From Balanoglossus misakiensis (taxonomy: Eukaryota; Animalia; Hemichordata): DNA of 64,000 nucleotides. Position numbers and translations under genes: made by a program. Shown one piece after another: positions 2,759 through 58,055 of this stretch (position 1 is its first letter; each line of letters opens with the position of its first letter). The notes beneath the pieces were generated by a model that saw only the letters and a list, made by a program, of their open reading frames with translations, was not told where the DNA came from and searched no databases. The stretch lies in NCBI GenBank assembly GCA_040954595.2, contig CM082598.2:1302001-1366000 (forward strand), written 5' to 3'.

Positions 2759-3911
2759 CTATTTGAGGGCAATTGCGATAGCTTTTCCACTGTACTCGCC
2801 AGTAGAGGAGATGTTCAGCATGAATTTCGCCACGTCTGCTCGCGGCATAGCCGCCACAGCACCGTCGACGAACATTCTTTCTTCGACGAGAACTTCTTTC
2901 CCTGAAAACAACGTTAACACAAACGATTGTAACTAGTATCTGTCATTCGGAATATAATCTCTTTTGGTGAATTCTGAATCATTTTTAGTAGTTCTGTTTG
3001 GCTTTCCAAAGTATAATGAAACGTCCTGTATAACAGATGTCAAAACTGAAAAGTTTGAAAAGTTTTTGTTCTTACCCTTCAGTGGATGTTTGGTGAGCCC
3101 CGGTGGTCTGACCACAGTGAAGTCAATATCAGAACATTTTTCGTTGAGAAAATCTTCCATTACGGCCATATTGGCCAGAATTCTTCCAAGAAGAAGTGGT
3201 TTCACTAGCCATTCGATCACCCAAGGGCCGGGATCCTTGGAATCGTCTGTGAGAGAGCGAACGCAAATCATGGGGTTATTGTAAAAAATCGTCTTGACCA
3301 AATTGATTTTAAATAAGTGACCAAGCCTACTTACATCTCGTGCACCATGACGTCATGCATATAAGTCTCTTCACTCCCGCCCTACGCATCGCCTTCACAA
3401 TAATCTCCATAGTGTCTGTGTATAGGGTAACTTTTGCAAAAAACGACTGCGAGAAAGACGAAGACTTTGTACTTCTACCAAGGCACGACAACACGGCGTC
3501 TTGGCCTTCGAAAACTTTCTTCAGATCGGTATCTTGGGCCAGGATATCGCCTTTAACGATCTAAACATTGGAGGAAGAAATACAAATTTCTCGTGTTTCC
3601 GAAAACCGTCCTTAAAGCATAAACAAGTTTTGTCGTTTTGCTGCGTTCCAGTATTGGCCAGCCAAATTCCCATAGTTCCAGTCATCAGGGTTCTATTCCG
3701 GGAAAGGGAAAAAAGTGATCGCATTCAAGCAAGAGTTTTGTCTTGCACTCGTATAACGTATAAGTTTGTGTCTCACCTTTAGATTTTTGTGTTGCATGGT
3801 TAGATTGCCGGGAGTTCTCACAAGAGCCACGACATGATGTCCTTGATCGAGGGCTTGCTGAACGACCTCTCGTCCGGTACCGCCAGTGGCGCCAAGTACT
3901 ACAAGCTTCAT
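2759..3911 (-). CDS. BLVRB: Flavin reductase (NADPH)/biliverdin reductase B-like, atypical SDR
   Basis: Exons 3911-3777, 3560-3335, 3246-3076, 2901-2759, all GT-AG and in phase. Motifs: MKLVVLGATGGTG (Rossmann GxxGxxG), GQDAVLSCLG, TVVRPPGL, PRADVAKFML. Orthology to BLVRB is by family resemblance. Confidence 0.85.
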
Positions 3912-5312
3912 GTCGGTCACTGGCCAAGTCTCAGTGCAACTTGTTGTCGCAGTCGTTGGTTAGACCGTCTCCGCCCAAATACACTGAGCTCAAAGTTTCA
4001 GGTAATTATAAAGGGTAAAAAGAAGAGGCTGTGATTGGTTGGCTATTATTATAATCCTAATCAGTAATTTGTTATGATGGAGATCAACATTGTATTTACT
4101 TTGAAACCAGCTAGGGCGGGCGGGGAGAGGGGGGGGGTCATATATTGCTTAGTCACCCACGGTAAAATGCACTGGGGTCACGGAAACCACTGCGTCACTT
4201 AGCAACCGTAGTGTTTGTAAAATCGTGAAAATAAGACATGACACAAAATAATTTGCATATTTAACGTATATATTAGTTTTATTAATTACAAATCTTGATA
4301 TTATTTTCATTTTGTACAGAAAATTTTCTATCAGTATTGTAAATGGTGCGTTTCTGTAAACAGTATCTACAAAAGTTTACAATGAAAAACGTTTGGTCTA
4401 GGCCTATAAAAATATTCAATGTTATAGACTTCAAGATGTTTAGTTCGGCTTGCATATCAGTCAAAACAATCGGACAATTATTTTAACCATGCTCGTTCGG
4501 ATATTCCAGTCATTCACTTGGGGGGGGGGGGGCAGATTCCTTTCACTTTTGTGAGGAACGTAACTGCAACTTACAGAGAATTCGTGTAAAACCGATAAAT
4601 GAATAATAATTTAAAACCTACACGACACTGAACATGCAGGGTGTTTGCCAGACAAGATGAGCAGCAAGCAGACACTCGCTGGGATCTAGACGTACAGTTC
4701 AAAGTTCAGCTGCGTCTTACTGAGATGTCCTTGCATAAAGTCACATATTTCCTAGAAGTCTTATATCAAGATCACTTGTAGCCCGCGTGAAGTTTTTAAT
4801 CAAATCAAGACTGTCGCCAAAGATAGTTTCAGGGCCATCGTGATAGAGTATAACAAACCCCCAGAACTTTCTGAGGTTCCTTTCATTGCTAGTGGTTCCA
4901 TAGTGAATACTAACTTTTACAGGGAAGTCATAAAAATAGGAAATTCGGGCAAATGAAAAATCGTTAACATCCCAGAAACGTCTTTAAATTAAATGAAACA
5001 CCGTCTTATTGTTTTCACATTGTCTCGTCCTTACAAAAGGCGATTGAAATCGGCGACTGGTTTGACATAATCCGGAATACTGACACCGGCTTCTTGAATC
5101 TTGGACCGAACGCGTCGAAAGGCCTTACATCCGAAGCTCTATCCTCTAATCGAGAAAACTAACTTCCAAGCAAGCCACATAGTCCGTTCGACCGTCCTTG
5201 CCAAAGCGAAGCGTCGATCCAAAGGTGGGTGACCTCTGAAATTTAGAGCGCTAGGGTGTTGCCATGGTCACAGGCGCGTCATCATAGAGTCATCCAGGGA
5301 AGCTGATACACT

Positions 5313-7287
5313 TCACATGACTTGGGTTTGTGAGTTGTGTTGCTTTTGCAATATAAGCGAGTTCCTTTGCCTTTGAGTGACAGTCTTTTTAAGTTGTTCG
5401 TAGAAGATGAACATGAAGACATTCCACGAGCCAAGACGCATAAACGAAGGCACGAACCTAGAAAAAAAACAGAGCCACCAATAATCATTAGAGAGGGTTC
5501 CATTTTGTTTATATTAAACTCATGCGTGCTGAAATTATTAAAAACTGCGTACTTCAGTCAACAAAAGTTTCCAGGTACAAACTACATATTACAGGTCGAC
5601 GCCCTCTAATCTATGATGTAAGTCTCTTACGTCAGTGTGTATTTTATTTGCACGTGACCTAATCCAGTGATAACAATGGCATGATCTGTTTGTCTGTGAT
5701 TGTTTTGAAGACAACAGCGATTTCTATCGACACGAAAAAAACTCACCCTTTATAGAAAGACTTTGCTCCGCCTTCTCTGAACATCGTGATGGCACAATCG
5801 ATTGCGCCCTTGTACTGGCCCGGGCTCGAGTTCATGAACCTCGTCTTCACGACGTCGATAGGAGACGCTATACATGTCGCCACGAAGCCAGCAAGGAACG
5901 CGGAAACGAAGTGACAAGGAAGGCTGTCAGACAACAACTTGAGGGAAAGAATCTTCTCTTTTGTGACGTCATAGACAACCAGTTCGGCAGAATTGATCAC
6001 AGCGTTGCGAGTTATGTTCGGTAAAAGGCCTTTGGGAGAAAAAAACGATATTTATTTAACATTTGTATAATATATGAAAACGAACGGATTCTTTTTATAA
6101 CTTTGCCCGTCTGTTTCTCTCGATCTTTCACGTTCTCTATTTGCATATCTGTCTGTATGTCTGCCTGTCTGTCTCTCTTCGGCCGAAAAAATACACCTTT
6201 TCAATATAACTCACCTCTCCAAAGCCCTTTAACTCCGTCAGCTTTGACGATTTTCTTGTAAGCATCAAGAGCGCCGTTGTATCGCTTTGGTCCACCACTG
6301 CCGCTGCGCTGAGCTTGGAGGCGCACTTTAACAACATCTGTTGGCTGGGCAACGGAGATTGCTAGAGCACCGGTTGTCATGCCAGCAAGGATACGAGTGA
6401 AAATTGCACTACCTGGAATATCTGTTGAAATTCAGACGAAAATACACTTTCGTTAGACAAGTTGTACTGGAAGGGGCTTTCGTTAAAGGATGACTAAAAT
6501 CGGTTTCAGTTCCATAGGAAATGGAAACGTCTTGTAATATAACAGAATTTCGAGTACAGCTAATATTATGCATAAAATTCGATACTCACTTTGAGAAATT
6601 GCACTTTGGTAGGTCTGTTTGACGGAGTCGTAGAGGCCTATACGAACAGATGCAAAGGTCATCTGGCGTTGAAGACCTGCATTCAAACCATTATAGAGGG
6701 CGCGCGGTCCTTCTGTTCTAACGATGGTGGTGATAGTTCCAAAAAGACCGCTGTAACGCACAGATGTCTTTACAGTACTCTTTGTAATGGCCCCTCTAGG
6801 AGTTGGGCCCTGAATCTGTGTAGAAACATAGATCAGAACCCAGCTTATTAACATGTACAAGATAACATCCTTACTGGCAAAATCATTGCCATCGATAGTT
6901 AAGCAACCATGATTTGGCAAGCAAGGAAAAAGTCATTTAAAAAACGTTGTTTGGCTACAACCAAATGTTGTTGGAAATACATGTACTAGTAAATTCTACG
7001 TACCCTAATTACATATGCAAATAAGCCACTGTTGTGAATGAATAATACAATTTTCACCCAATGAGCATCGAGCATTCAGGTAAAACGTTTTGACATGCAA
7101 ATAATTACGCGTCACGTGAGGAGTATCGCCCAATCGGGAAAGAGTTGCATCATACCTGCAATCGCACTTTGGCAGTGTCCAACGGGAACGTGATGACATC
7201 GGCCATACAGGCAGCCGTCCCGGCGCAAGCGAATTTCACGCCAATCGATGGCTGAGCTTCAGCGGGTTTGTAAATAGTCTTGGGCAT
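5313..7287 (-). CDS. Mitochondrial uncoupling protein, UCP2/3-like paralog A (SLC25)
   Basis: Coding exons 7287-7156, 6815-6590, 6421-6215, 6029-5747, 5457-5313, intact. Three carrier signatures ([31 protein letters not shown]) plus UCP-type [17 protein letters not shown] and [14 protein letters not shown]. Putative leader exons ~9360-9280 and 7706-7476; the first coding exon starts at acceptor 7338. Confidence 0.95.
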
Positions 7288-7536
7288 TTTTATAACAATG
7301 TAAATCGTCGAAATGTAAAAGATATTCTTATCAAAACACTGGTAAAAGGAAAGAGAAGATTTATCGGCATTAGTAAATAAGAAACCTCGGTCTCATTTTG
7401 CAAAATGTCGATTGTAATGAACGAAGTTGAAACTGGCATTTCATTAAATAACATACAAAAGAGAAAAACACTCACCTCTTAAAGAACAATATGATCCCTG
7501 GCAGTTATTAAATGACTACAGTCAACAGAATCTTCG

Positions 7537-7698
7537 TTAGAGTTCTGAGGATAATGTGTTACTGTAACAGACCCGAAAATCGTCTTCGCTGTAGTAATTA
7601 CTATGATATCGTAGAAAACTGATTTCTTGTATATTTTTTGAAGTCTTTAGTCTCATAGGAATTAACGATGTCAATATTCGGGTGGGGTTTGTAGCCAT
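7537..7698 (-). CDS. 53-aa upstream ORF (candidate micropeptide) in leader exon 2 of UCP paralog A
   Basis: ATG 7698 to TAA 7537: MATNPTRILTSLIPMRLKTSKNIQEISFLRYHSNYYSEDDFRVCYSNTLSSEL*. Lies in an exon bounded by polypyrimidine-CAG|7706 and 7476|GTGAG. Aligns without gaps to 17022-17183. Confidence 0.8.
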   Translation of the reverse strand: MATNPTRILTSLIPMRLKTSKNIQEISFLRYHSNYYSEDDFRVCYSNTLSSEL

Positions 7699-8278
7699 TA
7701 AATTATCTGTAATGCAAAAAAGGAAAAAAGGTTGTCTTTAGTTTTGCGTGAAGATATCGATGGAGTCCGCTTTTGATGTTTTAAAAGAAACATTCAGTGA
7801 TGTGAATAACATTCTATTATACACCTTGTTTTTAGCGACTCCGGGTTTATTGTCGCGTTTTTTGGCTCTCGCCAAGTTCGCGAAAATTTTCCCCGTATGC
7901 TGTTTTACGGAAACTTCTACCGAAGAATGATATTATTGCATCACTTTCGCGTATGTAAATTAGTTCAGCCGGGTCTGTGTTTTACTTCATGCTAATAGTT
8001 ATTTGCGTTAAAGTTAAGACTGATGCTCGCATTCAGTATAGCAAGTCACGGTGGTGTTATGTTTTACATCCCGTCGGAGGCAGTTTGCCTTCGATAAAAG
8101 TGATTCGCCGTGAATTTCACAATGAAAGTTCACCGAAAGGTTTCCGAGTACGCATCAGCTGGGCGCTGAGTCTCTGGAACGCACGTAGCACACGTCGCTG
8201 GATGATTGCCAGCACTTTCATTAGTACAGTTCAATGACTGACTCTCAGCGAGTTTGCGCAAACAGACCCGGCGATTTC

Positions 8279-8340
8279 GACGTCACGGTGTGTTAACCAA
8301 TGAGCGGCCGTCAATCCGACACACCTCCACGGACGCCCAC
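8279..8340 (-). promoter_or_regulatory. Intron-1 module conserved with paralog B (GGAGGTGTG / ATTGG / GTGACGTC)
   Basis: Reverse complement aligns to 16187-16250 with the same 10-nt gap between ATTGG and GTGACGTC. Confidence 0.55.
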
Positions 8341-9383
8341 GATTGAAAACAACATCATCGCTCCGCTGATCATCTCCGGCAAGCTAACGTGAATTTCTTT
8401 CTTTCCATTTTTCCGTTTTTCCGTAGTTGTCTATCCATAAGCCTCCTTAAATAGCCAGACATGGTGTTTTCATGTTGATGAGCGTTACCAAACGTCCGAC
8501 ATCGAGCATAAACCTAACACGGGCAATTTTACACGGCAAAAACAGTAAGCTTACGGGTTCGTAATTTCCTTGCCATGGTCCAAGCTTCCGGGTGACATAG
8601 AGTCCGTTTTCGAATTTTTCCTCTGCCTCCTGATGTACGCGTTTCTAATCTCACGTCGTTTTTGTTGAAATTCCGGCATTTCAACCGTCATGCCTTTCAA
8701 CCGGTCGTGTTACTGGCTTCCATACGTATACAGGCAGGCAGACTGGTCCAAAACGCCCGTTTGCGGGACGTCGATCCACATCGCACGGCTTGCGAACATT
8801 TTTCATTCATTCCGTTTAAACACCAACATCATGTCCGTGCGAAGAACCGAACGTCAGGCTAATCAAATTCGAAGATTTTAAGACAGCGTTGATAACCTTC
8901 ACCCGGTCCCAAGTCATAATTGAAAACCATCAGAAGGCGATATGTCGACGGAGTGCCCGATGTCTCACCGAGGAATTTCATGACAACAGCCCGGTACGAT
9001 GGAATAATTGCAAAGACAAAATTCCGCTCAACTGGTCCTAAACGGGGAAAAACATCATATTAGTAAATAATATTTCGGAGCAATGTAAGCGCGAATATTT
9101 TCAACGATTTTCATGGTTTTTTTCATTCATATAAATTCGATCATAGTCATTAGATTTGACGTTTCTCTTGGCTGTAAGAAACAATGTTACGCTTATCCGT
9201 AAATCTAAAGTGCATATATTAAAAAGAAAAAGTTGAATATCAATATAAATATTTTTTTGAGTCGTGCTCAGATATTTACCTTAGATCTCCTGAATGTTGA
9301 AGGAGTTCCCAGGCTTGTAATGTCCATACATAAGAGTGTCCGTCGCCGTTGTAGTCGTCGTGCGGAATACTGGAGCATGTCGC

Positions 9384-9450
9384 TTTTTTATGTATTCATA
9401 CGCCGGCCTACGATAAACATGCCTCTGACACTCCCCCAGTTTCAACCAAT
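9384..9450 (-). promoter_or_regulatory. Core promoter of UCP paralog A (inverted CCAAT, TGTCA, TGTTT, CATAAAA TATA-like box)
   Basis: Same motif order and offsets (0/+20/+31/+58) as 15173-15237. A downstream donor at 9280|GTAAAT matches paralog B's 15337|GTAAAT. Confidence 0.65.
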
Positions 9451-11289
9451 GGGCTGAGTCTGCGCATGTCTCCATCTATGGCGCTGGCCAATCACACGCC
9501 GGAGCCAACGTCCTTAAAGTGACGTCAGCTTAGCTAATCACAGTTGGGAGCCTGCGATTTCTTGGAGACAAACACATTCTTTCTTACGGTGGTTCAACGC
9601 GGTCACTCCACACAAGTCAATGCAGCGTTACAATGCACGCTGACGTAGTATACAAGAAGGAAGAATGTGTAACTGTCTTATTTGCGTACGTGTCGTCAGC
9701 TGATCGCTGTTTCACCGGTTTGAAGCGGACGGACGCACGACTTCACACGGTCGACTTGACCGGCCGGCGAACTCCAATTTTTAACTGATCACTCAGCTAC
9801 AGTGATTATTTGTTACTTAATTATTAATGATTATAAATAATGCCAGGAGTTTCTGTAAAATCATGAAAGTGTATCCACTTCAACAAATCTCGCACCTGCT
9901 TTGACCAGCCTGTAAACAATCTTGCGCGATGTTAAAGAAGTCAAAAACAGCGATGTTTTTTTTCTGTCAAATCCAGTCTTAATTTTGATTTGATTATGTC
10001 CCAAATTCTCCTAAAGAGGTTGCATATTCAAATATACCCGAACAATGATACATCACCCAGCACTAAAGTGCCGAATTTCGCTGTTAAAGACTTTGAGAGA
10101 ATTATCACTTTCTCCTTTTTCTCATTTGTCACCCTAACATGTCGGTCATGGTCACACCTTGACCGGTTTACCTCAACTAAACAAAGCCGCCATTTTGAGA
10201 ATTTGAACACGTGGGTGGGATAAATGTTTTTTGGAAAACAGTTCGTTTTCACCTTCAGACCGCTGCAAGACTTTTACCTGTGTGTCAGTGTCCTATAGGC
10301 CTAAGGGAACCCATATGACGTCATCAGCAGTACCGACGATTAACTTTCTATTATATGTTTCATTGTTCGTTGCAATAAAAGAAAATCCCCCTTTTTGTCA
10401 ACACGACACTCTGAATGCCTTCAGACGTCGGGATTGCGACAAACACCTGCATATGCCGTTCACCTATTCAGAAACGCTGTATAGTGTACTATTCACGCTG
10501 AATCATACCTCAACAAGGGCGACGCGACCTCTCACCGAACTTGCGCAGTAGAAGTAGGGAATTCCTTTTCGATTCGACGAGGTCTGACGTCAACACTGTC
10601 TACAGCAACGGAGATCGCTATGCGACGTAAACATAGATTACGCGTGCGGTGTGTCAACCGGTTGAATCTGGACTCTAATCCAATGTCTTCAAGATATTTT
10701 CAAAAACTTCAAAATAAATAGGACCTCCTTTACCTTCTTTGGTACGGTGACTGTCGTGAGAAAAAATATGCGAACACGCCAAAGCCGGTTGGGTCACTGA
10801 CATACTTTATGGGAGTCGTTTTTTGAGGAAAAAGTACATTTGTAAATCAGCACACAATAATTTGTGCAGTTAATTGTGTAATTCAGTGTCGATTTCTGAG
10901 CCGAGATGCATTTCAAGTTTTATTTTTCTAGTGGGCGGAATTATACCTGCCAGGAAAAACAATAGTCAATATTTCAAAGTTAAGGTAAAACAATGTAGAT
11001 CCTGTCAACTGTAATACAAAATCCGTGGACATTCATAGTCCTACGAGTGTCCGACCATAGCGGACTTGCCCCATGGTCCGGGTTCGGGAGTATGGAGGCA
11101 CAGCCAAAGCCGGACACTCTCGCCATACATTTAATAACCCTTCTGGGTAGTTGTGTTGTTGTATACATATACTGAACTGGATTAATTGTCAAAACAGTGT
11201 AGGCAGCTAATAACCTCGTTTAATGTCGTCTGCTGTTTAAACAAACAACTAAATATATCACTCTGTCTTACGCAAATTTGGAGGCTCGC

Positions 11290-12060
11290 CATATTGGCAC
11301 AATCTGATTGGCTGACAGGGACATCGCCCCCTGAAATCAATCGTGAACTATGGACTCTGTGTGTTTTTTTCTTTGTCAGCTATGCGAATGGTCTGAAGTT
11401 GCTACTATGGTATTGCCGGTTATGACCACTTAGCATATCACGTCGCCTATCGACGTCAGTAAAAATGTGCATGAAATAGTGTACTCTGATATGGCAGATC
11501 GTATTTCTGTTCGGACAATTTTATCTCCAGCTCGGATTGCATGTAATGCGATCTGATCGGATCGGTTGCTGTTTGTGTCAGCTGATGTTTTTGTCTGGTA
11601 AATATTCGGGGGCTTGGCACGGATTTCTTCGTGTGATTGGTTCAGATCGGACAACGCCCCCAAAAGTAGCACTCGGATTGGTGGAGCGTCCTAATCTCTT
11701 TGTCGGCTGTCACGGGGATCTAAAATCAATGTTTTCGTGTCCTTCACGCGCTGCCTTCAAAGTCATATTTTACTGACAGTGTATTTGATGTCGCGTGACT
11801 CAGCAGATATTCTCAGTTTGGATCAGCTGACCCTGGAACGCTTCCAAAGACCTCACGAAGATTCGCTTCACTGATTGTGGCCTTTAAACCGTATTGCTTA
11901 TGCAAATACGGGGGCTCGCCACGCTGGCTTGTCCTGATTGGCTGACGCGGCCAGCGCCCACTAATCCTGTGCTCACATTGGCTGTTAACGACCACGTGGT
12001 AACATAGTGGAACAATATCTTCTCTAGCAGCGCACTGGCATAGTTTTTGATGCGTCAGCA
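11290..12060. promoter_or_regulatory. Candidate shared enhancer between the divergent UCP genes (CCAAT cluster, ARE, Maf/CRE-like sites)
   Basis: About six ATTGG boxes; GATTGGCTGAC at 11306 and 11936; perfect ARE GTGACTCAGCA 11795-11805; TGATGCGTCAGCA near 12048; locally CpG-rich. Confidence 0.45.
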
Positions 12061-12354
12061 AATTTACAGGTACGTTATGCGTTGCGTTGTTTCCCTTTAT
12101 TAACCGAATGATACATTTAACAATGTATTCAACTCAAAATGGGACGAAATTAAAAGTTGTGTTTGGTCTATAAATGGTAGATTCATACCAATCCATAATG
12201 TTAGTAATTCAGGTTTATATACAACATGAAATAATAAGCATATTGATGGAAAAAAAACATCTGCTACGCAGAAGAACAACTACATCCGGTAACACATTTT
12301 CTCCAGATTAAAATGTTGGAATACCGCTTGCCAATCCATCATGGAAAATGCTTA

Positions 12355-12398
12355 GTCAGTACATAGACCCTAGTAGAGAAAGAGGTCTATGGTCAGTA
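12355..12398. mobile_element. 30-bp micro-MITE or DNA-transposon remnant with 8-bp TIRs and 7-bp flanking direct repeat
   Basis: GTCAGTA-[CATAGACC...GGTCTATG]-GTCAGTA. Confidence 0.5.
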
Positions 12399-15172
12399 CG
12401 TATTGGTGTTGCGTTGAACCTGATATATTTCCTATGTGTACAAAATCGTCATCTTTGGCCAATTTCGGATTCCAGACATTTTTCCCCGCAAAAGTAAACT
12501 ATTCCACTTCTATTGTCGCATGAATTCACCCAGGTCTTGCTGAGTAGAGTTTTGAATTCTTAGTAGACTCTGAACTGATGGATTCTTCAGTGGTCCGCGT
12601 TCGCACTAATCTGACAAACAAAAGGACGACCTTAGTCACAAAAGATCCCGTCCTTTTAATTTTCTTCAAAGCAGATAGTCTTGTTTCCTGAACGGTTCTG
12701 TTGCCTTATTTGTAGCAAACTATTTTCAGATATACTTATTTTCTAAATATATCCGACGAGTAACACATTGCGTATCTGGAATTGATTTTCTACAAAATGG
12801 CAACGGAAGGATCTAAAAAAAGTCAAAGCGGAACTGATCAGGGACCTTGCATCAGCCGCTATCGCCTCGAAGAAAACATCTGACGCCCAGATACAATGCA
12901 CATCACATGACATAGCTCCTCCCATCAAGGTTATTAATTATAATCGGTGAATTATGACGGGCCCCTGGATATGTTAGGGATGGCTGAAGGACCAGGCACT
13001 GGATCCTGCTGGTACCGATTTTTTGTTTGCTGAGCGAGCGGTTTACTACCTTGGCCACCATGATTTTTTTAATACCTGATATATATAACTTCTTCAGCAA
13101 TATTATGAAGTAACTCTATGCCTTCTGTCTTCACGTTCATTTTACAATTCCATGATTCATATAACAAGCTAATATCATCTCCGTCGCACTCTTCGTCCTA
13201 AAAAATACGCGCCTCTCAAATTTTCACAGAATCTCTTCCTCACTCGTTTTCCCCGTTTCGCATCTTGTCTCTCTTCCCAATCTGTCTCACATACATGTAA
13301 TTTGTAGAATGTACTCTAAGTGAAAATTGTCAGATCCATACATCTCCCCAAATGTTTCATAAGTTCAGGTTCATATGTGTTTCTTTTATCTGTGAACCGA
13401 GCTAACACATTTAGGCTATATATGCACCTCGACGAGAAACTTCCTCATTCGGAAATTATTCGAAATGGAATTGTGGGCAGACCACACAGAAAAATCACGG
13501 TTCACATCCTCTTTATTGAAATTGTGACTTTGTTAGTGATTTAGTAATCGGATATAAACGGATCATGGGCCGATCAAAACTTGCTGTCACGTCGGAAATC
13601 TTCGCGCATTTAAGATGTCAAAACCGTTGAAAAAGTCTTCGCGCGTTTGAGATGATATACAAGTGCTGACCGCGACATATCCGGCCATTCTTCTCCAAAT
13701 TTTATCATCCTTTTTAGGTCTTACTAATCGTTAGGTGCAAATCGGCTACAGGGAGGGTCATTATTTTTTTTTAAACTGTTAGTCACAACTGAACAATGGA
13801 ATGGGTGCGACAGGTATGTCATATGGGGGAGAAAGAGCGGTTTTGGTTGTAGCTTGCGGTGCTGTCCGAGAATGGATAAGGTGGATATAGAAAATCTAAT
13901 ATATTTATTGATATTGTTTTATACGTGAGCTAAATTTTGTCGTGCTTTTGCACTTTTTTGTTAAAGTTAAAAAAAAACAGGTCAAAGAACAATCCATACC
14001 CGATTCTATGATCGTCAATCATTTGATGTTTGTTTAGTCAAGGTGTGTGCGGGGGCGCGGTCAGAGAGATTGGCAAATAACAGAAGACTATAGAGATCAC
14101 CTGACCAGTTACCATGGCGTCGTCATCGTAAAATATTTACATACAATGGTACATGTACCCGGCTCCAAATAAATAGATAATCAAGCAAGGTTTGTCAAAT
14201 ATGCGACTGAGTAAACTCTGGGTTTGGCGAAAACAAGTCTTTCTGCCAACGCAATGATGCAACGGGTGGGAATACCAAAAAACATCTCGTCAAATCTAAC
14301 GCATGCGTCGACCGTGCGAAATTAGGCCATTGTCGTCAAAACAGATTAACCCCAGCTCTTAGCGAGAAACGGAATACAGCGATCGACTAGGTCAGCGTGA
14401 TCTTTAGTGACAAGTCACGCGAGGGCAGATTTTCAGATTTTGAAAGGGACAGAATGGGCGAACGGTCGCTCTTTTTGAATAAAAACAGTCGACAGAGTCT
14501 TTGCACTTTTTACAGCCAGGTTGGATGCTCACTGTACAATTTCGCAATCTCTCAGTGTCACGCCGACCTCGAGAGTGGTACTGACAAGAATGAGTGAAAA
14601 CAACAACCTTGATTCGGTCACAGACCCCCAAAAAACTTCCCCAAGGGTCAAGGCTTCTGACAAGACTATTACTTCTACAAAACGCGTACAGTTCTGACAG
14701 AGTTAAAAGTGATAGAGCTCAACTCCCGTTTCAAATTCACCGAATACACTCCACAGTCGCCTACGTCCACCATCTTTAAAGGTTCATTTGTTTTAAGACA
14801 CGATTACTCATGAAAATATGTTGCTAGCTGTTTGTCAAGCAAACAAGTGTTGAAGGGCGCTTCGGTTTGATCTCCATGCTAACCAGTGTCATATTCAAGG
14901 TATCGTGAATGACAATGGCAGTGCAGGGCAACTTGTGAAAAATAATGTCGGTCACTGCCCTCAGTTTGACTTATGCAAATAATCTAAATTCGGTTCACTC
15001 CTCCCAATATTAGTCAGTATAGGTGCCGCAGTCCAAGATATAGATATCTCAAGGTAACAAACAACTCGTGTCGATTACGACGATTCTAATATTCTGTATC
15101 AAGGGGAAAGAGAGTGGGCTCGTCTGTGTGTGACTGGCTGGTTTCAGTTTATGAATATTAATCTGCCTTGTG

Positions 15173-15237
15173 ATTGGTCGATTTCGTGGGTGTGTCAGGG
15201 GCTTGTTTGTTCCACGCTAAGGCTCGTCGGTATAAAA
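15173..15237 (+). promoter_or_regulatory. Core promoter of UCP paralog B (inverted CCAAT, TGTCA, TGTTT, TATAAAA)
   Basis: ATTGG 15173, TGTCA 15193, TGTTT 15204, TATAAAA 15231. Leader exon 1 runs from ~15261 to 15337|GTAAAT. Confidence 0.7.
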
Positions 15238-16186
15238 GCACCGTTTTTTCGCATGACGCAATTGCGACCAAGACCACGGCGACTGACAAGAGCTCTATAT
15301 TTTACCCTGAAAATTTCCCACCAACCAACGAACAAAGGTAAATCCATTTAATTGATTTTATTTTCTCTCTCGCTGATCTGGGCTCAATATCTTGACAGAT
15401 TGATAGTACGCTGATCATTTGAGTTTTCTATGAAACGGGATGAAGAATATTTGTCGTGTTGCAATCGTTCAAATTGGCCCTGGTTCCGTTTTTGATGAAA
15501 TTTCATATTTTTTCCACATTATTTTTTTACGGGATTGTATTATATTTTTGCCATGATAGGCCTACGTGTACAGAGAAATTCACGTTTCTGCAAACGCTTT
15601 CTTGCTTTTGAATCAAGAGGGTTAGGTTGGTTTTATCCACACTGTCATTTCCGGCTATTGTGAAATTTCTTTTTCGTGATGTCGAAACACCAGATGATGC
15701 AACAGTTTTGACTTCCTAAAATCCGAATCGGAATTTGAATGTACCAGGTATTACGGAACTTAAGTGATGAGTTTAGTTCATTTCATATACGTTGATGTTT
15801 TCCTGAATTCGTATGTTAACCTTGATCATACCGCACATCAGTATTTGTGAGCATTGAGAACTGCTCACTCTTTTAGCCGTCCCTCTGTGAGCCAATTAGC
15901 ATATTGGAATTGTTCAGAGTCGTGCACAGTACAAGCGAGAGAGAGAGGAACCCGGATCTTGGTCGAGCCCAAGCTTTTGAGATATTAAAAAAGAATAGAC
16001 AATACCCATCTTTTCATAAATAAAATGTATAAAATATGAGATTTCTTGATCCGCTGTGAAAGAAAAACAAACGACTATTGTTGCTCTATGTTCGCCGATA
16101 CCTTTTGCCATGACAAGGCTTTTCAGCAAGCGAGGACAAACGCTTCGTTTCTCAGCTGATCGACCTCGAATTTTCCCCGAGTACGA

Positions 16187-16250
16187 GTAGGCGTTTTTGG
16201 AGGTGTGGTGATATTCGAGAGCGCCGATTGGCTGACAGGGTGTGACGTCA
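16187..16250 (+). promoter_or_regulatory. Intron-1 module of paralog B with CCAAT and full CRE (TGACGTCA 16243-16250)
   Basis: Homologous to 8279-8340 (minus). GATTGGCTGACAGGG is also found at 11306-11320. Confidence 0.55.
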
Positions 16251-17021
16251 GCGTCGCACCATGATGACGTATGACCTTGTTTGCGCAGGGGAACTGAATA
16301 GCGCAAAATATCGCGGCGGTGAAAACCGGTATAGATACAGAATGTGTGGTCTACGTGCGTCGATGTAAACTGATTATGTCGCCGGTGATAATTTGGGTTT
16401 GCAAACCATGCTAAATTCGTTTATTTCTGTGGGGAGAATAAACCAGAACGAAATGAATCGCCTTGACGCAAAAGACGCGATCTGTTAATACATAACCAAT
16501 GTTTGTGTGTCAATCAGGTTGATTGGTTGCCTAGTAACGCGGATCAAAAATGCTGATGTGGCACTTTTTGTCGAGAATTCAACCGCCTAGAAATATTTTT
16601 TACAGTCTTCCTGATTCTTCATCGCTTAATTATGAGAATACAAGAGGCCATAGTCCGAGTATCCGCTTTGGTACGGTCAAAATTTTTTTTTTTAGAACAA
16701 TAGAAATATTTATTGAACATTAACTCGCTCATTAGCCGTTGGCCACACCCATTCCCGTCCGGTACCCAGTGTTTCGCAATGATGCGTCAGCACATCGTCT
16801 GATGTTGGGTGGATTTCGCAACTAAATTAGCTATCCAGGTTTTCATTTCCGCCAATTGTATTGCAAGAGCAGTTACTATAAAACCACTTTTCACCGGAAA
16901 GCAGACACCCTCACAACCGATAAACAGTCTGAGAAACGTCGGTCTGCATGCAGAGCCGTACTGAATTCCGAACACCGCAACTATATACGTTCTTTGTGTC
17001 TTTTTCATTCCAGATAATTTA

Positions 17022-17183
17022 ATGGCTACAATTCACACTCAAATTTTGACATCGTTAATACCTATGAGACTTCGGTTTTCCAACAATATACAACAACTTA
17101 GTCTTTTACGTTACCATCGTAACTACTACAGTGAAGACGATTTTCGGGACTCTTGCGGCATCACGTTATCCCTAGAACTCTAA
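17022..17183 (+). CDS. 53-aa upstream ORF (candidate micropeptide) in leader exon 2 of UCP paralog B
   Basis: ATG 17022 to TAA 17183: MATIHTQILTSLIPMRLRFSNNIQQLSLLRYHRNYYSEDDFRDSCGITLSLEL*. Exon 17014-17228 is bounded by CAG| and |GTAGGT. 37/53 identical to 7537-7698. Confidence 0.8.
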   Translation: MATIHTQILTSLIPMRLRFSNNIQQLSLLRYHRNYYSEDDFRDSCGITLSLEL

Positions 17184-17500
17184 CTAATCGCAGACGTTTT
17201 TATTACCGAAGAGTCTATTTTTCCGAAGGTAGGTCCATGTTTATCCAATTTGGAAGTTTGATAAATGCCTGCTTTTAATTAATCGGAAGAGTGGCCAGTT
17301 TTGCATTCTGTTGTTTCAGAAGTTCATCTTGCATGATTCTACAACATAATCCAGTGTTCAACATTTCTTATTCTTACTGTGTTGTCACCAATGACGTTCG
17401 ATCAAGATTTCTTTTTTCTTATTTTTTCAGTATTTATCTTTTTAAAAACCAAGTCTCATTCCGATTTCGAGTGTGAATTTTTCGACAATCAAGCATCAAA

Positions 17501-19314
17501 ATGGTTTACAAGCCCGTTGATGTTCAGCCATCGGTTGGTGTGAAATTTCTCAGTGCTGGGACGGCTGCCTGCATGGCCGATATGATCACATTCCCATTGG
17601 ACACTGCCAAAGTACGATTACAGGTAAGATAAAACTCCTCTTTTGATTGGTTGATACTGTGGCCTGATTTGCATATCGGCAAGACAACATAACATTTTCC
17701 CCTGTTGATTAGAAAATTTACTTTACATTATACAGGTAAGTAGGTTTCGAGAGCGTTTCTCATGAAGACGAAATCTTATTTTTTTTTCTTCAATTTTGCT
17801 TTCTTCCATAGGTACAAATGATGGCTAAACAAAAACGCACACGTGACCGTGTGACGTAATCCACACTTGATCCAATCACTGGAAATTATGACGTCATCAC
17901 TTGAGAAGTCCAACTTTTCCGATCGTGCCTCTTCGGAGCTGGCAAATTTTACCTTTCTATGAATTTTTCACCACACAGATCCAGGGTGAGGGCGCTACCT
18001 CTGCCAAGACAGTGGGGGCCATCACTAAGAGCGTTGTTAAGCAACCCGTGGTGCGTTACAACGGTATGGTCGGAACTATTTCGACCATCATCAGAACAGA
18101 AGGACCACGCGCCCTCTATAATGGTTTGAATGCTGGTTTGCAACGCCAGATGAGCTTCGCCTCTGTTCGGATTGGTCTTTACGATTCTGTGAAACAAACC
18201 TATCAGAATGGAGTAGCTCACAGTAAGTGTGCAAATTTGGTCTTCTTATTTATCATTGTGTGTGGTCCAAGGAGAGTGTTCTGTTGACTTCTGACAAAAA
18301 CACAATAGTCTTGTCACTAAACTGTTCAATGTTTTACAGGCCTGCCTGGTGGTGGTGTGATAACGCGCATCCTCGCTGGCATGACAACCGGTGCCATGGC
18401 AATCCTTGTTGCCCAGCCAACGGATGTCGTGAAAGTGCGCTTGCAAGCCCAGACCAATAACAGTGGCCCCAAGCGTTACCATGGCGCCCTCCATGCTTAC
18501 AAAACTATCTTTAAGAATGATGGAATGAAAGGGCTCTGGAGAGGTGAGTTATCCTTGGATTGTTTTGAATCATTGACAGGCCAAGACAGACAGTCAGACA
18601 GACAGAATGGAAGCTGAACTTTTTCATGTGCGCAGAAAAGGACGTTCCATTGGTGGGTTCATATCCATCTCAATTAACAAAACGACCACATTTTTTTGTT
18701 TCTAAACATCGTCTCGTTTACCTTCCAGGAACATTGCCAAACATAACCCGCAATGCTGTCATCAATTCTGCTGAATTGGTCGTCTACGACGTCACCAAAG
18801 AGAAGCTCCTCTCCATGAAGTTGTTGTCAGACAGCCTGCCTTGTCACTTCGTCTCTGCATTCCTCGCTGGCTTCATCGCCACATGCGTCGCTTCACCCGT
18901 CGATGTAGTGAAGACCCGCTTCATGAACTCCAGTCCAGGCCAGTACAAGGGCGCCATTGATTGCGCCGTCCAAATGTTCAGGGAAGGTGGAGGCAAGTCT
19001 TTCTACAAAGGGTGAGTTTTCCCACAATAACGCTGATAACTTTACCTACTGAAAGGAGTTGGCGATCACCAGTGATGACCAGTAGAGAGTAATAACCATT
19101 GAGATTCGATGTAACTGAAACTAAAAGAAATCTTAGTATTCGTCGTTTTACATTCTGAATAACCCCCCCCCCCCTCTCTCTCTCTTCAAATTCCAGGTTC
19201 ATGCCATCCTTCATGCGTCTTGGTTCATGGAACGTGTTCATGTTCATCTTTTATGAACAACTGAAGAAGTCGATCACTCAACGACAAAGACAAAGCCAAG
19301 TCCAAACCATGTAA
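17501..19314 (+). CDS. Mitochondrial uncoupling protein, UCP2/3-like paralog B (SLC25)
   Basis: Coding exons 17501-17623, 17979-18222, 18340-18543, 18729-19011, 19197-19314. Intron positions and phases are identical to paralog A. Motifs: [52 protein letters not shown]. Confidence 0.95.
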
Positions 19315-22300
19315 AGAAGAGCATGTCATGAAAGAAAAATGACGCAAACTACATCTTCGTTGGTACTACAATTCTCTGAGAGTGAGCTGTCCATGTATTG
19401 CACTGCAGTGGATAACCTCTGACCTTTCACTGCATCTATCGCATCTTGTAGCTTCTTCCTTTTACAGTACTTGTCCGGTTGACGCATCTACAATAGCAGC
19501 AAGTGAACGCGAACACTGAGACTTTTTTGGAGTTATTTTCCTCCATTTGAGGATAGAACTTCATGAAAGAAAAGTCCTTCTGCTCGTCGTCGTCTTGTTG
19601 AAGAGAGAATTTCCTAATAATCTTTTTTTTGGAGAATATTTGGTCTTTTGAGAGAGGGATTTTTGTCCCGGAAGTAGAGTCGCCGATTTGAACAGAGTTT
19701 TGGTCCGTTTTTGTTTGTTTTTATATAGGAAATGACACAGAACACCATAAGTCATTCACTGGCGTGTTTTATTTGTAACAGAATGTACTGACATTTAACA
19801 CGATGTAGATTTTTCATTACAACATTGACGTGATTTCCAGACTCCGCGCATGACTTTGCACAGACAAGAGAAAAAAAGACTTGTCTATGGTTTTCGAAAC
19901 AGTAAGGCTTACATTGGGTGACTACTGAGGCAATTGCTTTTATCATAACAGTTGGTCTCTTGTCAGATTATTCAGATTATACTTGCATTGAGTTGGAATT
20001 CATGTCAAGTTGTATTTATTTGTGCATATTTTCTAATGTTGTTAGAATAGAAGAAATTCGTGCAGAAGGAAAGATTTTACCGGGGACGAGGATAGAATTT
20101 TTCTTACTGACGAGAAGGAACGTGATCTTATGGACGATCTCCCCATGAGTGATTCCAGTCACACGCATGCGTAAATATTGTTTCACTGGAGGTCATTCCG
20201 ACCCGGGAAGATCTTCTCTTCTGTTACCATGGTTACTTTAATAGTTAGCGTGTGATGTTAGTACTATTTGGCTTCGGGTCACATTTGTTTCAAAACCTAG
20301 ATAGCCTAACAAATACTACACCCATTCACAACTCTTGATAGATTTACGCGGCACTTGTATCAGGAGATTAGGAAGAGTGGGAAAAGAGATCACAAAAATG
20401 CTTCGTCCGGTGAACTATTATGTTCACTTGTACTAAGAGCATTCGTAGCCGTGGTTTTGGAGTCGTTAGCCAAAAAATGTGTGTTTCCGGTAACCCGACC
20501 TACCTAGTTCAAACCCTGACCTTAAACTTTCTTTGTCTCTACTTTAGAGAAAATCAGATAAGATTTGATAACAGTTGAAAATAAAACGTGTTTTTATAAT
20601 ATTTTGGAAGGGTGTGTTACATGAGACAAACATTTTTTGGCTAACAAGGGGTATACTGGGATGGGATGGGGTGGGGTTGGGAGTAGAACCAACTGGGGTT
20701 ATTATTATTTTAGGAGTTGTGTTATTTTGGCCAGAATAAATGATTTCTCCTTTTCGGGGATCACCCCCATCACATGGATGGATCCAGGGAGAATGGTTTA
20801 TTCGTTCTTTCGGTTAACAGGGACGGATTATTTTTGTTAAAAAAAAATTATTTGATTCTAACATGATTATATTACACTCAATACCTTCTCATATCAATAT
20901 AACAATTTCTAGTTAAATCGTTGATGTAATTTCTGTGTGATATTTGACTCGAATCAATCGTTATAATTGTCTTGTTGAAATAATCTTTACATTGTACGCA
21001 GGAGCAGTGACGTCATAGACGTCTTATTTTTATTTTTACTCGTTTGTATACGACACTATTTGTTTCAAAGTCATTTATTATCATTAATTGACACGTGTTC
21101 TCACTGATGATAGATGTGAACTATGTATGTGTTAAAAAGAATACATTAAGAAATATAAATGTAATGTAATAAAACGTTCATATAAGATCGTTTACATAAA
21201 TGATGTGCAGTTTTATCACTTGAGACAACTGAGTGGTTGTGTGTGTGATTGCCAATTGTTTACATATCCACATTTACCCGCATATTTCTTGTAAAAATAT
21301 AAAAACAGTCAGATTGGAATCTCAAGGTGAGCAAATATGAGACACAACCTTTGGTTGGAAATTAACTCCTGAAAATATTATGAAAAGACACTGCTACATC
21401 TGATGATTCTGTCGACGAAGGTGCATTTGTATATAGGAGTAGCTCGCCAAACGTGTTTCGTACTCCTGAATTAATGGCCGTGTTTGACACTGGTGAGAAA
21501 TATTGGTAAGATTAACAGATGTAACATATCCGAATCCAATCGAAATCTCCAGCAAATTAGGAATGGACTAACACTACAAAGTCGAATCGATACTTTTGCA
21601 TTATGTTTTACAACGACTCTTGTAAACATGAGGACTCTTCTGTAATGGCAACCCTGGATGCTGCCATGGAAACGTTGTAACGTGGAGGAATTGTGGTCCA
21701 TTGCTCAGGGTACTGAACTGATAGGAACGCTACTACACGGTGCAACCTCTGCTAACAGAGAAATTTGTCATCATCCGTAACCCAGAACTTTCCACACTCA
21801 ATAAAAGAAACGAACTTGTGTCCTCACGTCGACACAGACACAAATCATTGTTACGCAACAATTAAGTCTAGAAACTCCTCATATCACTAGCTACACATTG
21901 TTATGCAAAACTGCCCACTCTAACCTACATTCCACCACCTGTGTACCTGCATATAACCATATACATTAGAGGGGGGAGACGGATCTTCCCCTTCTACTGT
22001 CTATGGTTTTGATGGATGGATCTATGCATCTGATGCTCCCATTTGATAGCCGCAATAATCCGCGTTAATGTGGCTGCAATGGACCTCTTTGTCGTTTGGA
22101 TATACACTACATTAATGGCCACCTGCCGCCTTAAGTAAATTTTCTTAATAGCTAAGTTAAAACGTCAATTTTATGACATTGGACATAGGCGATACAGGTA
22201 TTTATATTGTCTGCGAGGCACTAAGTACAGTCATTTGTTTGCGAAAAGATATAAAATTTTCCTCGTTTGTGTGTTCGGCTCACTGTTGCTGGTTGATCTG

Positions 22301-22761
22301 TCATCGTTCTCTTCAGTCGTCATCTACGTCATGCTTCTACTTGGGGACAAGTCTGGTGGGAACAGTTGATTTATAAGGATCCCGGATGTCTGGTACGCCT
22401 ACACGTCTTTTCCAGACGAATCAATGGCAAGTATCTTGAAGGTTTTATTTGGCGTTTCACTGAGCGACGTTTAGGTTTAGACTTGGCTGTGTTGAAGTTA
22501 GGCTTCAGCTACACACACCTGACGATCGGAAGCTTAGAAGATCTTTATCGCCACTGGTTTGAGACATTTGGGATTCGGACGTGGCGATGCTTGGTCAGTC
22601 TTCGTTCCCTGCACGTGGACAATCTGTTTAGTGTCACGGTGGGTGATACATGTAGTGTTATTGAGAGGCTGGCCTTTGCACCCTCTCTTCCGAGAACCAG
22701 ACGCGTATTTTAGCGTTGCCCACCGCTCGCTCCGTTCTGACAACCGAAGTAAGAGGCGAAT

Positions 22762-23946
22762 ATGAACGGGAGCCACGATCACAGTTATCTGGACAACAAC
22801 GAGTGCATCGCCGACCTTCGAGCTCGCAACGTCAGCCCGATAACCGGGATCTTCGGCACCGAAGAACTTCTCATCGACTCGAGGGAAGTCTTGCTGACGC
22901 GCATTATCCCAGCAACCATAACATGTCCGTTTGGTATTCTCCTAAACTGCCTGTTCCTCTATGTAGTTATAAGGGTGCGGGCCATGCATACCTTGACAAC
23001 CATGTATCTCTCCAACCTGGCTGTCGCAGATTGTATGTTCTTGGTCATCTACTACCTCCAAGCAGTTGGTGAACCCGCATCATCTGATATCATTCACGAC
23101 AAAACGTACCTAGGACCGGTCGGGTGCCTTCTTGTGAACATTTTACTTGACATCACACTGTTCGTCTCAGAATTCAGCATCACCCTCGTCACCTTTGAGC
23201 GATACATGGCGATTTGTAAGCCGTATAAAACCCACCGCATCAGTTCGAAGTCGAGGACAGTAAAACTGATCATCTTAACGTGGGTGGTCGGACTTATTTT
23301 TTCCACGCCGATAATCTATTTCTATACCAATTGGTCCAAAGTGTGCGTCGTGTGGGCGGGCCCTGTCAATGAGACTTCTCACTTGCCTACATCGTACTCG
23401 AACTGTTGGAGACACATCACGACCCCTCTGGAAGGAGCCTTGTTCACTTTTCCGCCTCTGATCGCCTTCTTTACCGTTCTCGCCGCCATTATCGTTTTCA
23501 ACACGCTCACCGTTGGAGAGCTACGCCGCGGAGTCAAACAGTACAGGATTAACGCTCCTGATTTGAAAGCAAGACTTTATCAGCAGAGACAGATTGTCGT
23601 CATGTTAGCCGTCACTGCCGGGGTATTTTTTGTCTGCCTGTTTCCGTACCACCTGGAATTGATAATCATTTTTGTGAACTCGGTACGCGGTAAGGAAATT
23701 ATAGTTTGGCCGAGAAGTTGGAAAGAATTGGTTCGTTGGCTGCCGTTGGTCAGTTCGACAGTGAACCCTATCATATACGGAATTCTGAACAAAAATTGTC
23801 GGTTGGCTTTTCAAAAGACCCTTCTCTGTTGGAAGCGTCCCCATCGGAGTGAAAAATACAGAATGTACAAACTAGCCTCAAGTTCGACCATGACCACAAC
23901 TCTCAGAAAAGAATCGGCAATATCTCATTCTGAAAGAATTGATTGA
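22762..23946 (+). CDS. Intronless class A (rhodopsin-like) GPCR, peptide-receptor-like (TRHR/GHSR/NMUR-like group)
   Basis: 394 aa with seven hydrophobic segments; NLAVAD (TM2), ERY (TM3), W in TM4, FFVCLFP (TM6), NPIIY (TM7); N-glycosylation sequons in the N-terminus. Confidence 0.9.
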   Translation: MNGSHDHSYLDNNECIADLRARNVSPITGIFGTEELLIDSREVLLTRIIPATITCPFGILLNCLFLYVVIRVRAMHTLTTMYLSNLAVADCMFLVIYYLQAVGEPASSDIIHDKTYLGPVGCLLVNILLDITLFVSEFSITLVTFERYMAICKPYKTHRISSKSRTVKLIILTWVVGLIFSTPIIYFYTNWSKVCVVWAGPVNETSHLPTSYSNCWRHITTPLEGALFTFPPLIAFFTVLAAIIVFNTLTVGELRRGVKQYRINAPDLKARLYQQRQIVVMLAVTAGVFFVCLFPYHLELIIIFVNSVRGKEIIVWPRSWKELVRWLPLVSSTVNPIIYGILNKNCRLAFQKTLLCWKRPHRSEKYRMYKLASSSTMTTTLRKESAISHSERID

Positions 23947-53667: not shown

Positions 53668-54253
53668 GTATGTTGTAGTTACGTGTTTACAGTTTATAGT
53701 CGTCGATGAAACCCTGCATCACTGTTTGTTTATGACGAAGTGTCGAGATGTTGTTGTGTTTATGATTCTCTCCCTGATGCCGGACAGTTTTAAAGTGGGA
53801 TAGCGCAGAGGTCTGGCCAAGACTTAAGGATCTTACAATGTAGATACTAGTAAAGCCCCTGCCAGTGTAACTGCCTGTTTCATGATATGCTTAAGTTGTC
53901 ATAGAAATACGACCACACTATCAGCATAAGTTACAGACCCATGATCAAAATAGTCATCGTTTCATGATCCATAAAGGCATTTCCGGAAATGGTTACATCA
54001 GGGAACGGTTGGAACCGGAAGTTTTAACTTATGTGCACATTTCGTGTCTTGTCAGTAGTACAAAAGAAAGGAACAAACAAGAGGGGACAGAAAGGGTCTT
54101 GACATCTATGGTCTTGAAAAAATACACACCCAAAGTTGACCACAAGAATCTTATCCAAAGCATCTCTCTCCTTCTTGTTACAGATATGTTGCCAATGTAG
54201 ACTGTATGTGGGTTTTTTTCATATCTGTGTTTGAAGATATAAAGTCTCTCAGT

Positions 54254-57200: not shown

Positions 57201-58055
57201 GCAGTTTTGCTCTTCTGTGTCAGCAAAAGATAATGAGCACACATACTCATAGTTCTATGTAAAATAGAGTAAGAGAAACCATAGGTCTAGCCCAATGTTA
57301 ACTCTTGAATAGCTCTTTGCTGGCACAGAAATTGCATTGGGGTAAAACACTTGCTCTGGTGCTAGTACATTTCCTGGTGTCTTCTCCCACTGATAAGTGT
57401 TTTTCCGTGTTTAGGTGTGGAGAGAATTCCCGGATCGACTGGTTGGATATCCGGGAAGATTGCATCTGTGGGACGAAGCAGTGGGAAAGTGGCGGTACGA
57501 GTCGGAATGGACAAGTGATATCTCCATGGTTCTCACAGGAGCTTCCTTCTACCATAAGGTGAAGATCTACGCTGTCTTAGGTTTTGTGTAGTCGTGGTTT
57601 GTGTTGCAGCTCTCGTTCAGTCAAACATGGCTTCTCTGCTGTTACATCATGTATTATGATTTTCATTTTGTTTACTCTCTCTCTCTCTCTCTCTCTGTCT
57701 GCAGTATTTCAGTCATGTGTACACCAATGAAATGCCAGGTAACATCAAATCATGGGTTGACGAACACATGAACTGCGAGGACATCGCTATGAACTTCATC
57801 ATTTCCAACTACACCGGCAAACCCCCGATAAAAGTCACACCCCGGAAGAAATTCAAATGCCCCGAATGTACTGGCGATCAGGTGATCTCAGCTGACCAAT
57901 CACACATGGTGGAGAGATCGGACTGTATCACCAGGTTTGCGGAAATTTACGGCACCATGTCGCTGAAAACGGTGGAATTCCGGGCTGATCCGGTGCTCTA
58001 CAAAGACCCATTCCCGGAAGAACTGAAAAGATTTAAAGACATTGGAAGCCTCTAA
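54254..58055 (+). CDS. EXT2: Exostosin-2, heparan sulfate co-polymerase (GT47 + GT64)
   Basis: Exons 54254-54780, 54967-55173, 55389-55584, 55916-56055, 56263-56488, 56624-56807, 56941-57107, 57415-57558, 57705-58055. EXT2-specific N-terminus [19 protein letters not shown]; [15 protein letters not shown]; AIDDD; NCEDIAMNF; RADPVLYKD. Confidence 0.96.
55640..55855. repeat. Tandem duplication (about 122-nt period) in EXT2 intron
   Basis: TCATTCAGAAACTTTCTTTTACTTTGTC occurs at ~55698 and ~55820 with similar flanks. Confidence 0.7.

Follow-up and report, generated by a model that had tools for sequence, protein, structure and literature searches.

UCP paralogs and their leader exons

The window, by which we mean the whole 64,000-nt stretch of DNA from the hemichordate Balanoglossus misakiensis that was analysed, contains two UCP genes of the SLC25 UCP1/2/3 type, each with five coding exons: paralog A on the reverse strand (coding region 5313..7287, −) and paralog B on the forward strand (17501..19314, +). 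The best database matches are hemichordate UCP2-like proteins (83 to 89%) and also vertebrate UCP1-3, which places both in the UCP1/2/3 lineage; for coding exon 4, the best relatives are from Ptychodera flava (83 to 88%) and Glandiceps talaboti (87 to 89%), together with a JGI protein (92%). The tree used throughout was a quick tree; among its 94 rows, A and B are sisters (SH-aLRT 93) within an eight-row hemichordate clade with support of 100, and we read the pair as a lineage-specific duplication in the acorn worm. Elsewhere in the window, Pfam matches mark a single-exon rhodopsin-family GPCR (22753-23946, +), an exostosin glycosyltransferase (54140-58055, +), a Psq/Tc5-type transposase remnant (62501-63103, +), and, weakly, an NAD(P)H-binding protein (2760-3926, −).

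Each UCP gene has a leader exon that carries a 53-codon upstream open reading frame (uORF) with a second in-frame AUG at codon 15. The uORF of B occupies 17022..17183 (+) within the exon 17014..17228 (+), and that of A occupies 7537..7698 (−) within the exon 7476..7706 (−); both exons are bounded by AG/GT. A first-pass annotation, made from the letters of the window, had proposed these two uORFs, and both peptides translate exactly as it claimed, from 17022-17183 (+) and 7698-7537 (−). Its description of the surroundings proved equally accurate. The spacer between the uORF and the main AUG is 112 nt in A and 115 nt in B with no AUG inside, and the context of the upstream AUG (uAUG) is suboptimal, with T at −3 (and G at +4), while the main AUGs have A at −3. 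In both genes, the spacer is out of frame and closed by stops, so the uORF lies upstream of the main open reading frame and is separate from it.

That the leader exons are spliced into UCP mRNA, as had also been proposed, is borne out on one side of each exon. RNA contigs join the donor of the B exon to the first coding exon (17228-17431) and the acceptor of the A exon to upstream exons (9280 and 8969 to 7706), while the donor joint of A and the acceptor joint of B, both with canonical splice dinucleotides, are absent among the joints listed (15 of the 17 in run X3). The RNA evidence comes from one sample with three runs, and the spliced contigs are from X3 alone, which we read as RNA because its contigs skip GT-AG introns. 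Run X3 has no coverage over the 5′ part of uORF B, which counts neither way.

The upstream exons of gene A hold additional AUGs that were absent from the first-pass annotation. An alternative leader exon (8969..9037, −) adds an in-frame AUG at 8981 that extends the uORF to 60 codons and has a better context (G at −3) than the uAUG (T at −3). The mapped 3′ part of exon 1 (9280..9331, −; donor at 9280) contains AUGs at 9331 and 9327. If transcription begins 5′ of 9327, the stop codon of the 9327 frame overlaps the uORF start in both isoforms (TAATG and ATGA), in an arrangement resembling termination-reinitiation overlaps.

Selection on the uORF peptide

The two uORFs align without indels and are identical at 37 of 53 residues and 129 of 162 nucleotides, as reported at first pass. 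Codon changes comprise 11 that are synonymous only, which is the number originally counted, and 16 that change the residue. Calculation of dN/dS, the check that had been suggested, gave 0.29 by NG86 (dN 0.17, dS 0.58; bootstrap 95% CI, 0.12 to 0.66; Fisher p = 0.0016) for the paralog pair only, with 0.24, 0.31, and 0.54 from an NG86 library, maximum likelihood, and LWL85, respectively. The corresponding values for the UCP coding regions of A and B are dN 0.13, dS 1.01, and dN/dS 0.13, and the lower dS of the uORF differs from that of the coding region at p = 0.06. By segment, dN/dS is 0.31 for codons 2-21 (not significant alone), 0.12 for codons 22-42, and 0.88 for codons 43-53; the last six codons before the stop are likewise well conserved between A and B. 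When 33 substitutions were placed at random, at least 37 identities without a stop were retained in 0.6% of 20,000 trials, and no alternative frame of the block is free of stops in both paralogs.

The similarity is sharply bounded. It begins at the splice acceptor and continues for four bases beyond the stop codon, and the introns are unalignable. In ungapped steps of 20 nt, 14 to 18 positions are identical from the 20 nt before the AUG to the stop, after which the counts fall to 6, 2, 4, 4, and 5 of 20, in agreement with the divergence after the stop described earlier. A blastn comparison of the two gene regions matched only the uORF block, the coding exons, one 14-nt chance match, and a 37-nt block in the 3′ UTR. 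Judged between the two paralogs, we consider the uORF pair a real conserved-peptide uORF (CPuORF). The 3′ UTR block (5133-5169, −, and 19527-19562, +; 84% identical, E 2e-4) is a possible shared regulatory site.

Relatives in other UCP leaders

Searches with the window peptides themselves yielded no relative. A word-indexed search with the uORF B peptide gave no candidate, none of the 184 stretches that an alignment of the two peptides matched in metagenomes was confirmed, and neither peptide is present in a collection of 15 billion proteins. Leaders of other hemichordates were recovered by none of the peptide, metagenome, or UCP-alignment searches, and only a five-residue core recurs elsewhere.

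We therefore describe that core from a set of leaders obtained by scanning metagenome contigs with a 24-sequence UCP alignment, from which the best 80 of 243 confirmed loci were taken; uORFs were listed for the first 51 of the 80, and the 43 with an assignable main start were tested. A hidden Markov model (HMM) of the two window peptides was run on 7,836 segments from the 80 loci and gave no significant match, with a best E of 0.38. One locus, L002, encodes a protein identical to mouse Ucp2 and carries the known 36-codon uORF (L002:110-220), which ends in DTFREA. LFDDFRE is found in the uORFs of two others, L009 and L010, which fall among arthropod UCPs in the tree. At the same core, the window peptides read EDDFR followed by D or V: codons 39-43 encode D-D-F-R-D in uORF B (17136..17150, +), in common with the cladoceran (DDFRE) and mouse Ucp2 (DTFRE) uORFs, and D-D-F-R-V in uORF A (7570..7584, −), where position 5 is Val instead of Asp or Glu.

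A profile search produced 10 matches, namely six further L009-type and four mammalian-type peptides. The full HMMER search with a five-peptide profile gave seven matches, none from a new lineage: four mammalian-type Ucp2 uORF translations, one cladoceran-type peptide, and two tandem-repeat proteins that we judged spurious. The L009-type family (L009, L010, and P0186-P0191) keeps LFDDFRE invariant in all six aligned peptides through frame-preserving indels. Because one of its clusters includes the Daphnia sinensis hypothetical protein GHT06_014393 (P0194, 141 amino acids), whose C-terminal end is this peptide and whose gene model probably derives from a UCP leader, we call the family cladoceran. 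Its uORFs resemble those of the window in encoding DDFR with identical GAC GAT TTT CG codons and in lying on a UCP transcript (L009 and L010; for the protein-only members, we infer the link to UCP), but they differ in having their own upstream motif (L.WR...RQ.L..LF), a length of 31 to 50 codons from the conserved start, and a strong uAUG context. We found no published description of this cladoceran family.

Statistics of the shared core

The core, D-[D/T]-F-R, is present in 3 of the 43 other UCP-like leaders (mouse Ucp2 and the two cladoceran leaders), each time inside an AUG-initiated uORF. This corresponds to three occurrences in 10,644 leader-frame residues of the 43 leaders, compared with three in the rest of the six-frame translation of the 80 loci (~486,000 residues). 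It is absent from 40 of the 43 leaders, many of which are short and some of which come from distant or non-animal carriers. One nemertean-like UCP transcript has a 53-codon uORF (L006:25-186) with the same start context as in the window (TTTAATGGC) and with its end 131 nt ahead of the main AUG; it looks intact yet lacks the core, and its peptide cannot be aligned with the window uORFs.

The motif was noticed first and tested afterwards. For the three-way test, the window pair and mouse were fixed in advance and the third member was the best of 56 other uORFs; the top-scoring alignment was DDFRD/DTFRE/DDFRE. None of 600 shuffles reached the observed score at widths of 4, 5, or 6, whereas 48 of 600 did at width 8 (p 0.08), and none of 1,915 real control ORFs reached 55, compared with the observed 60. 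Pairwise comparisons were weaker. Mouse against the window pair was not significant in either of two tests (p = 0.15 and p = 0.084), and the cladocerans against the window pair gave uncorrected p values of 0.012, 0.12, and 0.034. In an unbiased ranking of 57 uORFs by local alignment, the cladocerans placed 3rd and 4th and mouse 11th, with two unrelated uORFs above them. The bulk of the core signal is the hemichordate-cladoceran match (p = 0.0005 at width 5, versus 0.084 for mouse). Weighing these results, we lean toward homology of the core across the hemichordate, cladoceran, and mouse uORFs, and we regard the window uORF as a probable deep relative of the mammalian UCP2 uORF.

Peptide, codons, or length

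The codons of the core are themselves conserved. It is encoded by GAC-GAT-TTT-CGG in A, B, and L009, by GAC-GAT-TTT-CGA in L010, and by GAC-ACC-TTT-AGA in mouse, such that the first Asp is GAC and the Phe is TTT in all five uORFs and the second Asp is GAT in all four that have it; the UCP coding regions of all five use TTC more than TTT. Synonymous variation is confined to Arg (AGA, CGA, or CGG) and Glu (GAA or GAG), and this variation is in line with selection on the amino acids. The earlier claim of selection on the peptide itself is upheld insofar as dN/dS is significantly below 1, but invariance of the core Asp and Phe codons across three lineages suggests that the peptide may not be the sole target. 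Since both residues and codons of the core appear constrained, the pattern fits a pause linked to decoding. The stop is 3, 4, 6, or 12 codons beyond the core Arg, and this variation fits a pause in elongation better than one at termination; given that the last six codons are kept between A and B, an effect at the termination site may also contribute.

A structured cis-regulatory RNA was rejected, as there is no conserved stable fold and no Rfam match (0 within 4,000-21,500 of the window). Folding z scores were −0.2 and −2.0 for the two exons and −0.7, −1.2, +0.2, +0.1, and +0.1 for the five uORF stretches, and the consensus fold was weak (−11.9 kcal/mol). An 8-bp hairpin over the core in L009 is absent in L010 and was ruled out as a conserved feature. 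We also discarded fusion of the uORF to UCP by programmed frameshifting or readthrough: although a shift to +1 would lead into the UCP frame in A and B alike, that frame is interrupted by stops in both genes. The UUU-CGN in the core resembles +1 frameshift sites. A weak uAUG context does not hold as a cross-phylum feature, because the mouse and cladoceran uAUGs have A at −3.

These observations bear on what the working element would be. If it were an mRNA or codon string, GAC-NNN-UUU-(C/A)GR, acting within a translated uORF through slow codons, tRNA-dependent pausing, or a protein-binding site, the peptide would largely follow from it. Such a string would account for the fixed Asp and Phe codons in genes that otherwise prefer TTC, for a 14-nt exact match between uORF B and L009 (as long in 2 of 300 shuffled leader sets), for the lower dS of the uORF relative to the coding region, and for the comparison of L009 with L010, which use the same codon at 4 of 14 identical residues and whose sole conserved run of identical codons, TTT GAC GAT TTT, adjoins the core. 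Work by Hurtaud in 2006 reportedly found the 3′ part of the mammalian uORF to be decisive, with a synonymous change there altering repression and some amino acid changes leaving it unaffected; the core sits in that 3′ part, and the result agrees with a codon string and counts partly against a pure peptide model. Nevertheless, we consider it unlikely that the codon string is the working element: dN/dS is well below 1 across the entire uORF, with its 11 synonymous-only codons, the mouse difference is codon shaped (ACC for GAT), Arg changes codon family, neither a stable fold nor an Rfam match was found, and AT-rich leaders favor TTT regardless.

Somewhat less probable again is a generic long repressive uORF, for which translation and length alone would matter, the similarity of A and B would reflect lineage-specific duplication or old gene conversion, and the mouse and cladoceran match would be convergence or chance. 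The sister position of A and B, the weak cross-phylum pairwise similarity, the order in which the motif was noticed and tested, the unrelated conserved uORF peptides found in other UCP leaders, and the altered reporter behavior upon shortening of the UCP2 uORF (in the available part of PMC8789081) all agree with it, but it sits poorly with a dN/dS significantly below 1, with a block that stops at the stop codon while introns and UTRs are unalignable, and with the family-wise result of the three-way test. We think it improbable that the product is a stable micropeptide acting in trans, for example after import into mitochondria. The basic N-terminal part is presequence-like, with a net charge of +4 ahead of the core in both paralogs, and fly mitochondrial mRNAs are enriched for conserved uORFs (available part of PMC2276209); against this, mouse has −1 and cladocerans have 0 to +3 in that region, the part common across phyla is five residues, and lengths range from 31 to 53. 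A bicistronic micropeptide, offered as an option at first pass, gained no positive support: Pfam assigned 0 of 6 peptides to a family, Atlas returned no usable match for uORF B (and cladoceran peptide matches all under 0.8), and the window peptide has no database relative.

Proposed mechanism

We put at about one in two the probability that both uORFs are, as seems likely from the analysis, translated repressors from a bilaterian ancestor, predicted to slow or stall their own ribosome at the core and thereby to limit scanning to the UCP start. Ribosomes would initiate either at the uAUG, expected to be leaky with its T at −3, or at the AUG of Met15. Elongation would then slow over the core as codons ~8-42 occupy the exit tunnel, and the invariance of the codons points to a contribution from decoding speed. 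The paused ribosome would obstruct scanning ribosomes that had bypassed the uAUG and keep UCP synthesis low until the block was relieved by a stress or nutrient signal, the role that glutamine and eIF2 phosphorylation play for mammalian UCP2. Of this scheme, the reading frame itself, its selection, its splicing, and the common core rest on direct observation, and the steps just outlined are drawn from how the uORF is conserved and by analogy with mammalian UCP2.

Comparison with known systems

Cis-acting arrest-peptide uORFs are known from the fungal arginine attenuator peptide, AMD1/SAMDC, and plant CPuORFs. The window uORFs are like these in showing peptide-level selection ahead of a metabolic gene and in having a conserved stretch of about the length of the ribosome tunnel; they differ in having no known sequence relation to them, and here stalling is suggested by the conservation pattern. 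The CPuORF concept is set out in parts of PMC2276209 and PMC7530721.

The closest system is mammalian UCP2 (SLC25A8), and the parallel with it, drawn in the first-pass annotation, stands for the architecture of a spliced leader exon with a uORF and now extends to the five-residue core, although mouse and window uORFs compared as a pair fall short of significance (p about 0.08 to 0.15). In both cases, a single long uORF lies ahead of a UCP1/2/3-type carrier and contains several in-frame AUGs (two in the window uORFs, three in mouse Ucp2), the uORF stop lies 112 to 137 nt before the main AUG, and the D-[D/T]-F-R core has GAC and TTT codons. The window uORFs differ from that of mouse Ucp2 in length (53 versus 36 codons), in the number of residues after the core Arg (11 versus 2), and in the −3 position of the uAUG (T versus A), and outside the core there is no detectable similarity.

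The mammalian uORF itself is long known. According to the available portions of the sources, its 36 codons are described in PMC4383229, PMC6071544, PMC7619398, and PMC8789081; ribosomes translate it and it withstands repression through eIF2 (PMC4383229), its inhibitory effect exceeds 10-fold and little reinitiation follows (PMC7619398), and it involves leaky scanning past translating ribosomes (PMC8789081). It is needed for glutamine induction in the accessible parts of PMC6071544, PMC11156755, PMC9144266, and PMC6524716; the review PMC6071544 terms the inhibitory peptide hypothetical, and the human uORF was suggested to be a CPuORF as early as 2008 (PMC2276209). Three further sources, as far as their accessible text goes, offer translation evidence or nothing on conservation of the UCP2 uORF (bioRxiv 2022.03.12.484025, PMC3483550, and PMC9735768). 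The animal CPuORF survey with ESUCA leaves UCP unmentioned in the main text, and its supplement may list a human UCP2 CPuORF with taxonomic range (PMC7530721). In literature whose coverage is thin for subscription journals, we found no description of an invertebrate UCP uORF or of the D-[D/T]-F-R core, and what is new here is the core common to hemichordate, cladoceran, and mouse UCP uORFs.

The UCP2 protein level is largely governed by the uORF, and the route of glutamine sensing is unsettled in the literature consulted. Comparison among mammals fails to localize the working part because mammalian uORF peptides are nearly identical. The acorn worm and water flea uORFs narrow the common sequence to five codons, which provides a precise mutational target for mouse and human reporters in which peptide and codon effects are separable; this core is the main value of the finding, as it makes the mammalian mechanism directly testable. 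If the uORFs are homologous, the element predates the protostome-deuterostome split, more than about 550 million years ago. A stronger proposal, which we hold only tentatively, is that the mammalian UCP2 uORF belongs to a pan-bilaterian, metabolite-sensing arrest element whose core, D-[D/T]-F-R-[D/E] with fixed Asp and Phe codons, has been kept since that split while the rest was rewritten in each lineage; the five codons behind glutamine control would thereby be identified. If homology fails, the window uORF is still a sound, ordinary new CPuORF.

Other uORF families and upstream elements

The leader set contains other conserved uORF peptides. One, M-x(5-8)-W-x(2-4)-[SPE]-P-D with synonymous codon variation, occurs in six UCP transcripts (L025:1074-1139, L026:165-281, L027:108-188, L028:49-174, L033:549-674, and L034:36-254) of a single arthropod-like clade (12 rows, support 100) that we would guess to be copepod-like. 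A third uORF family (R.F.VP...YRE.GQEP) is found in UCP leaders of the same clade (L031:124-282, L040:103-255, and the L035 leader), and L031 and L040 have 19 identical residues, 7 of them with the same codon. The Y-R-E of this family may be an echo of F-R-E in the core, but its three-way score was only 39.

Around the two genes of the window, a CCAAT box, a CRE-like TGACGT, and a TTTGCGCA element lie in the same order in both paralogs, at 8253-8297 (−) and 16227-16287 (+), 550 to 790 nt 5′ of the uORF exon. A short interspersed repeat at ~7845-7890, in intron 1 of gene A, stands out in both DNA runs by roughly tenfold coverage and numerous loose contig ends. Each paralog also has one TGATGCAA site, at 7936 and 15695, among 12 such sites in the window; we take these to resemble the ATF4/C-EBP amino acid response element.
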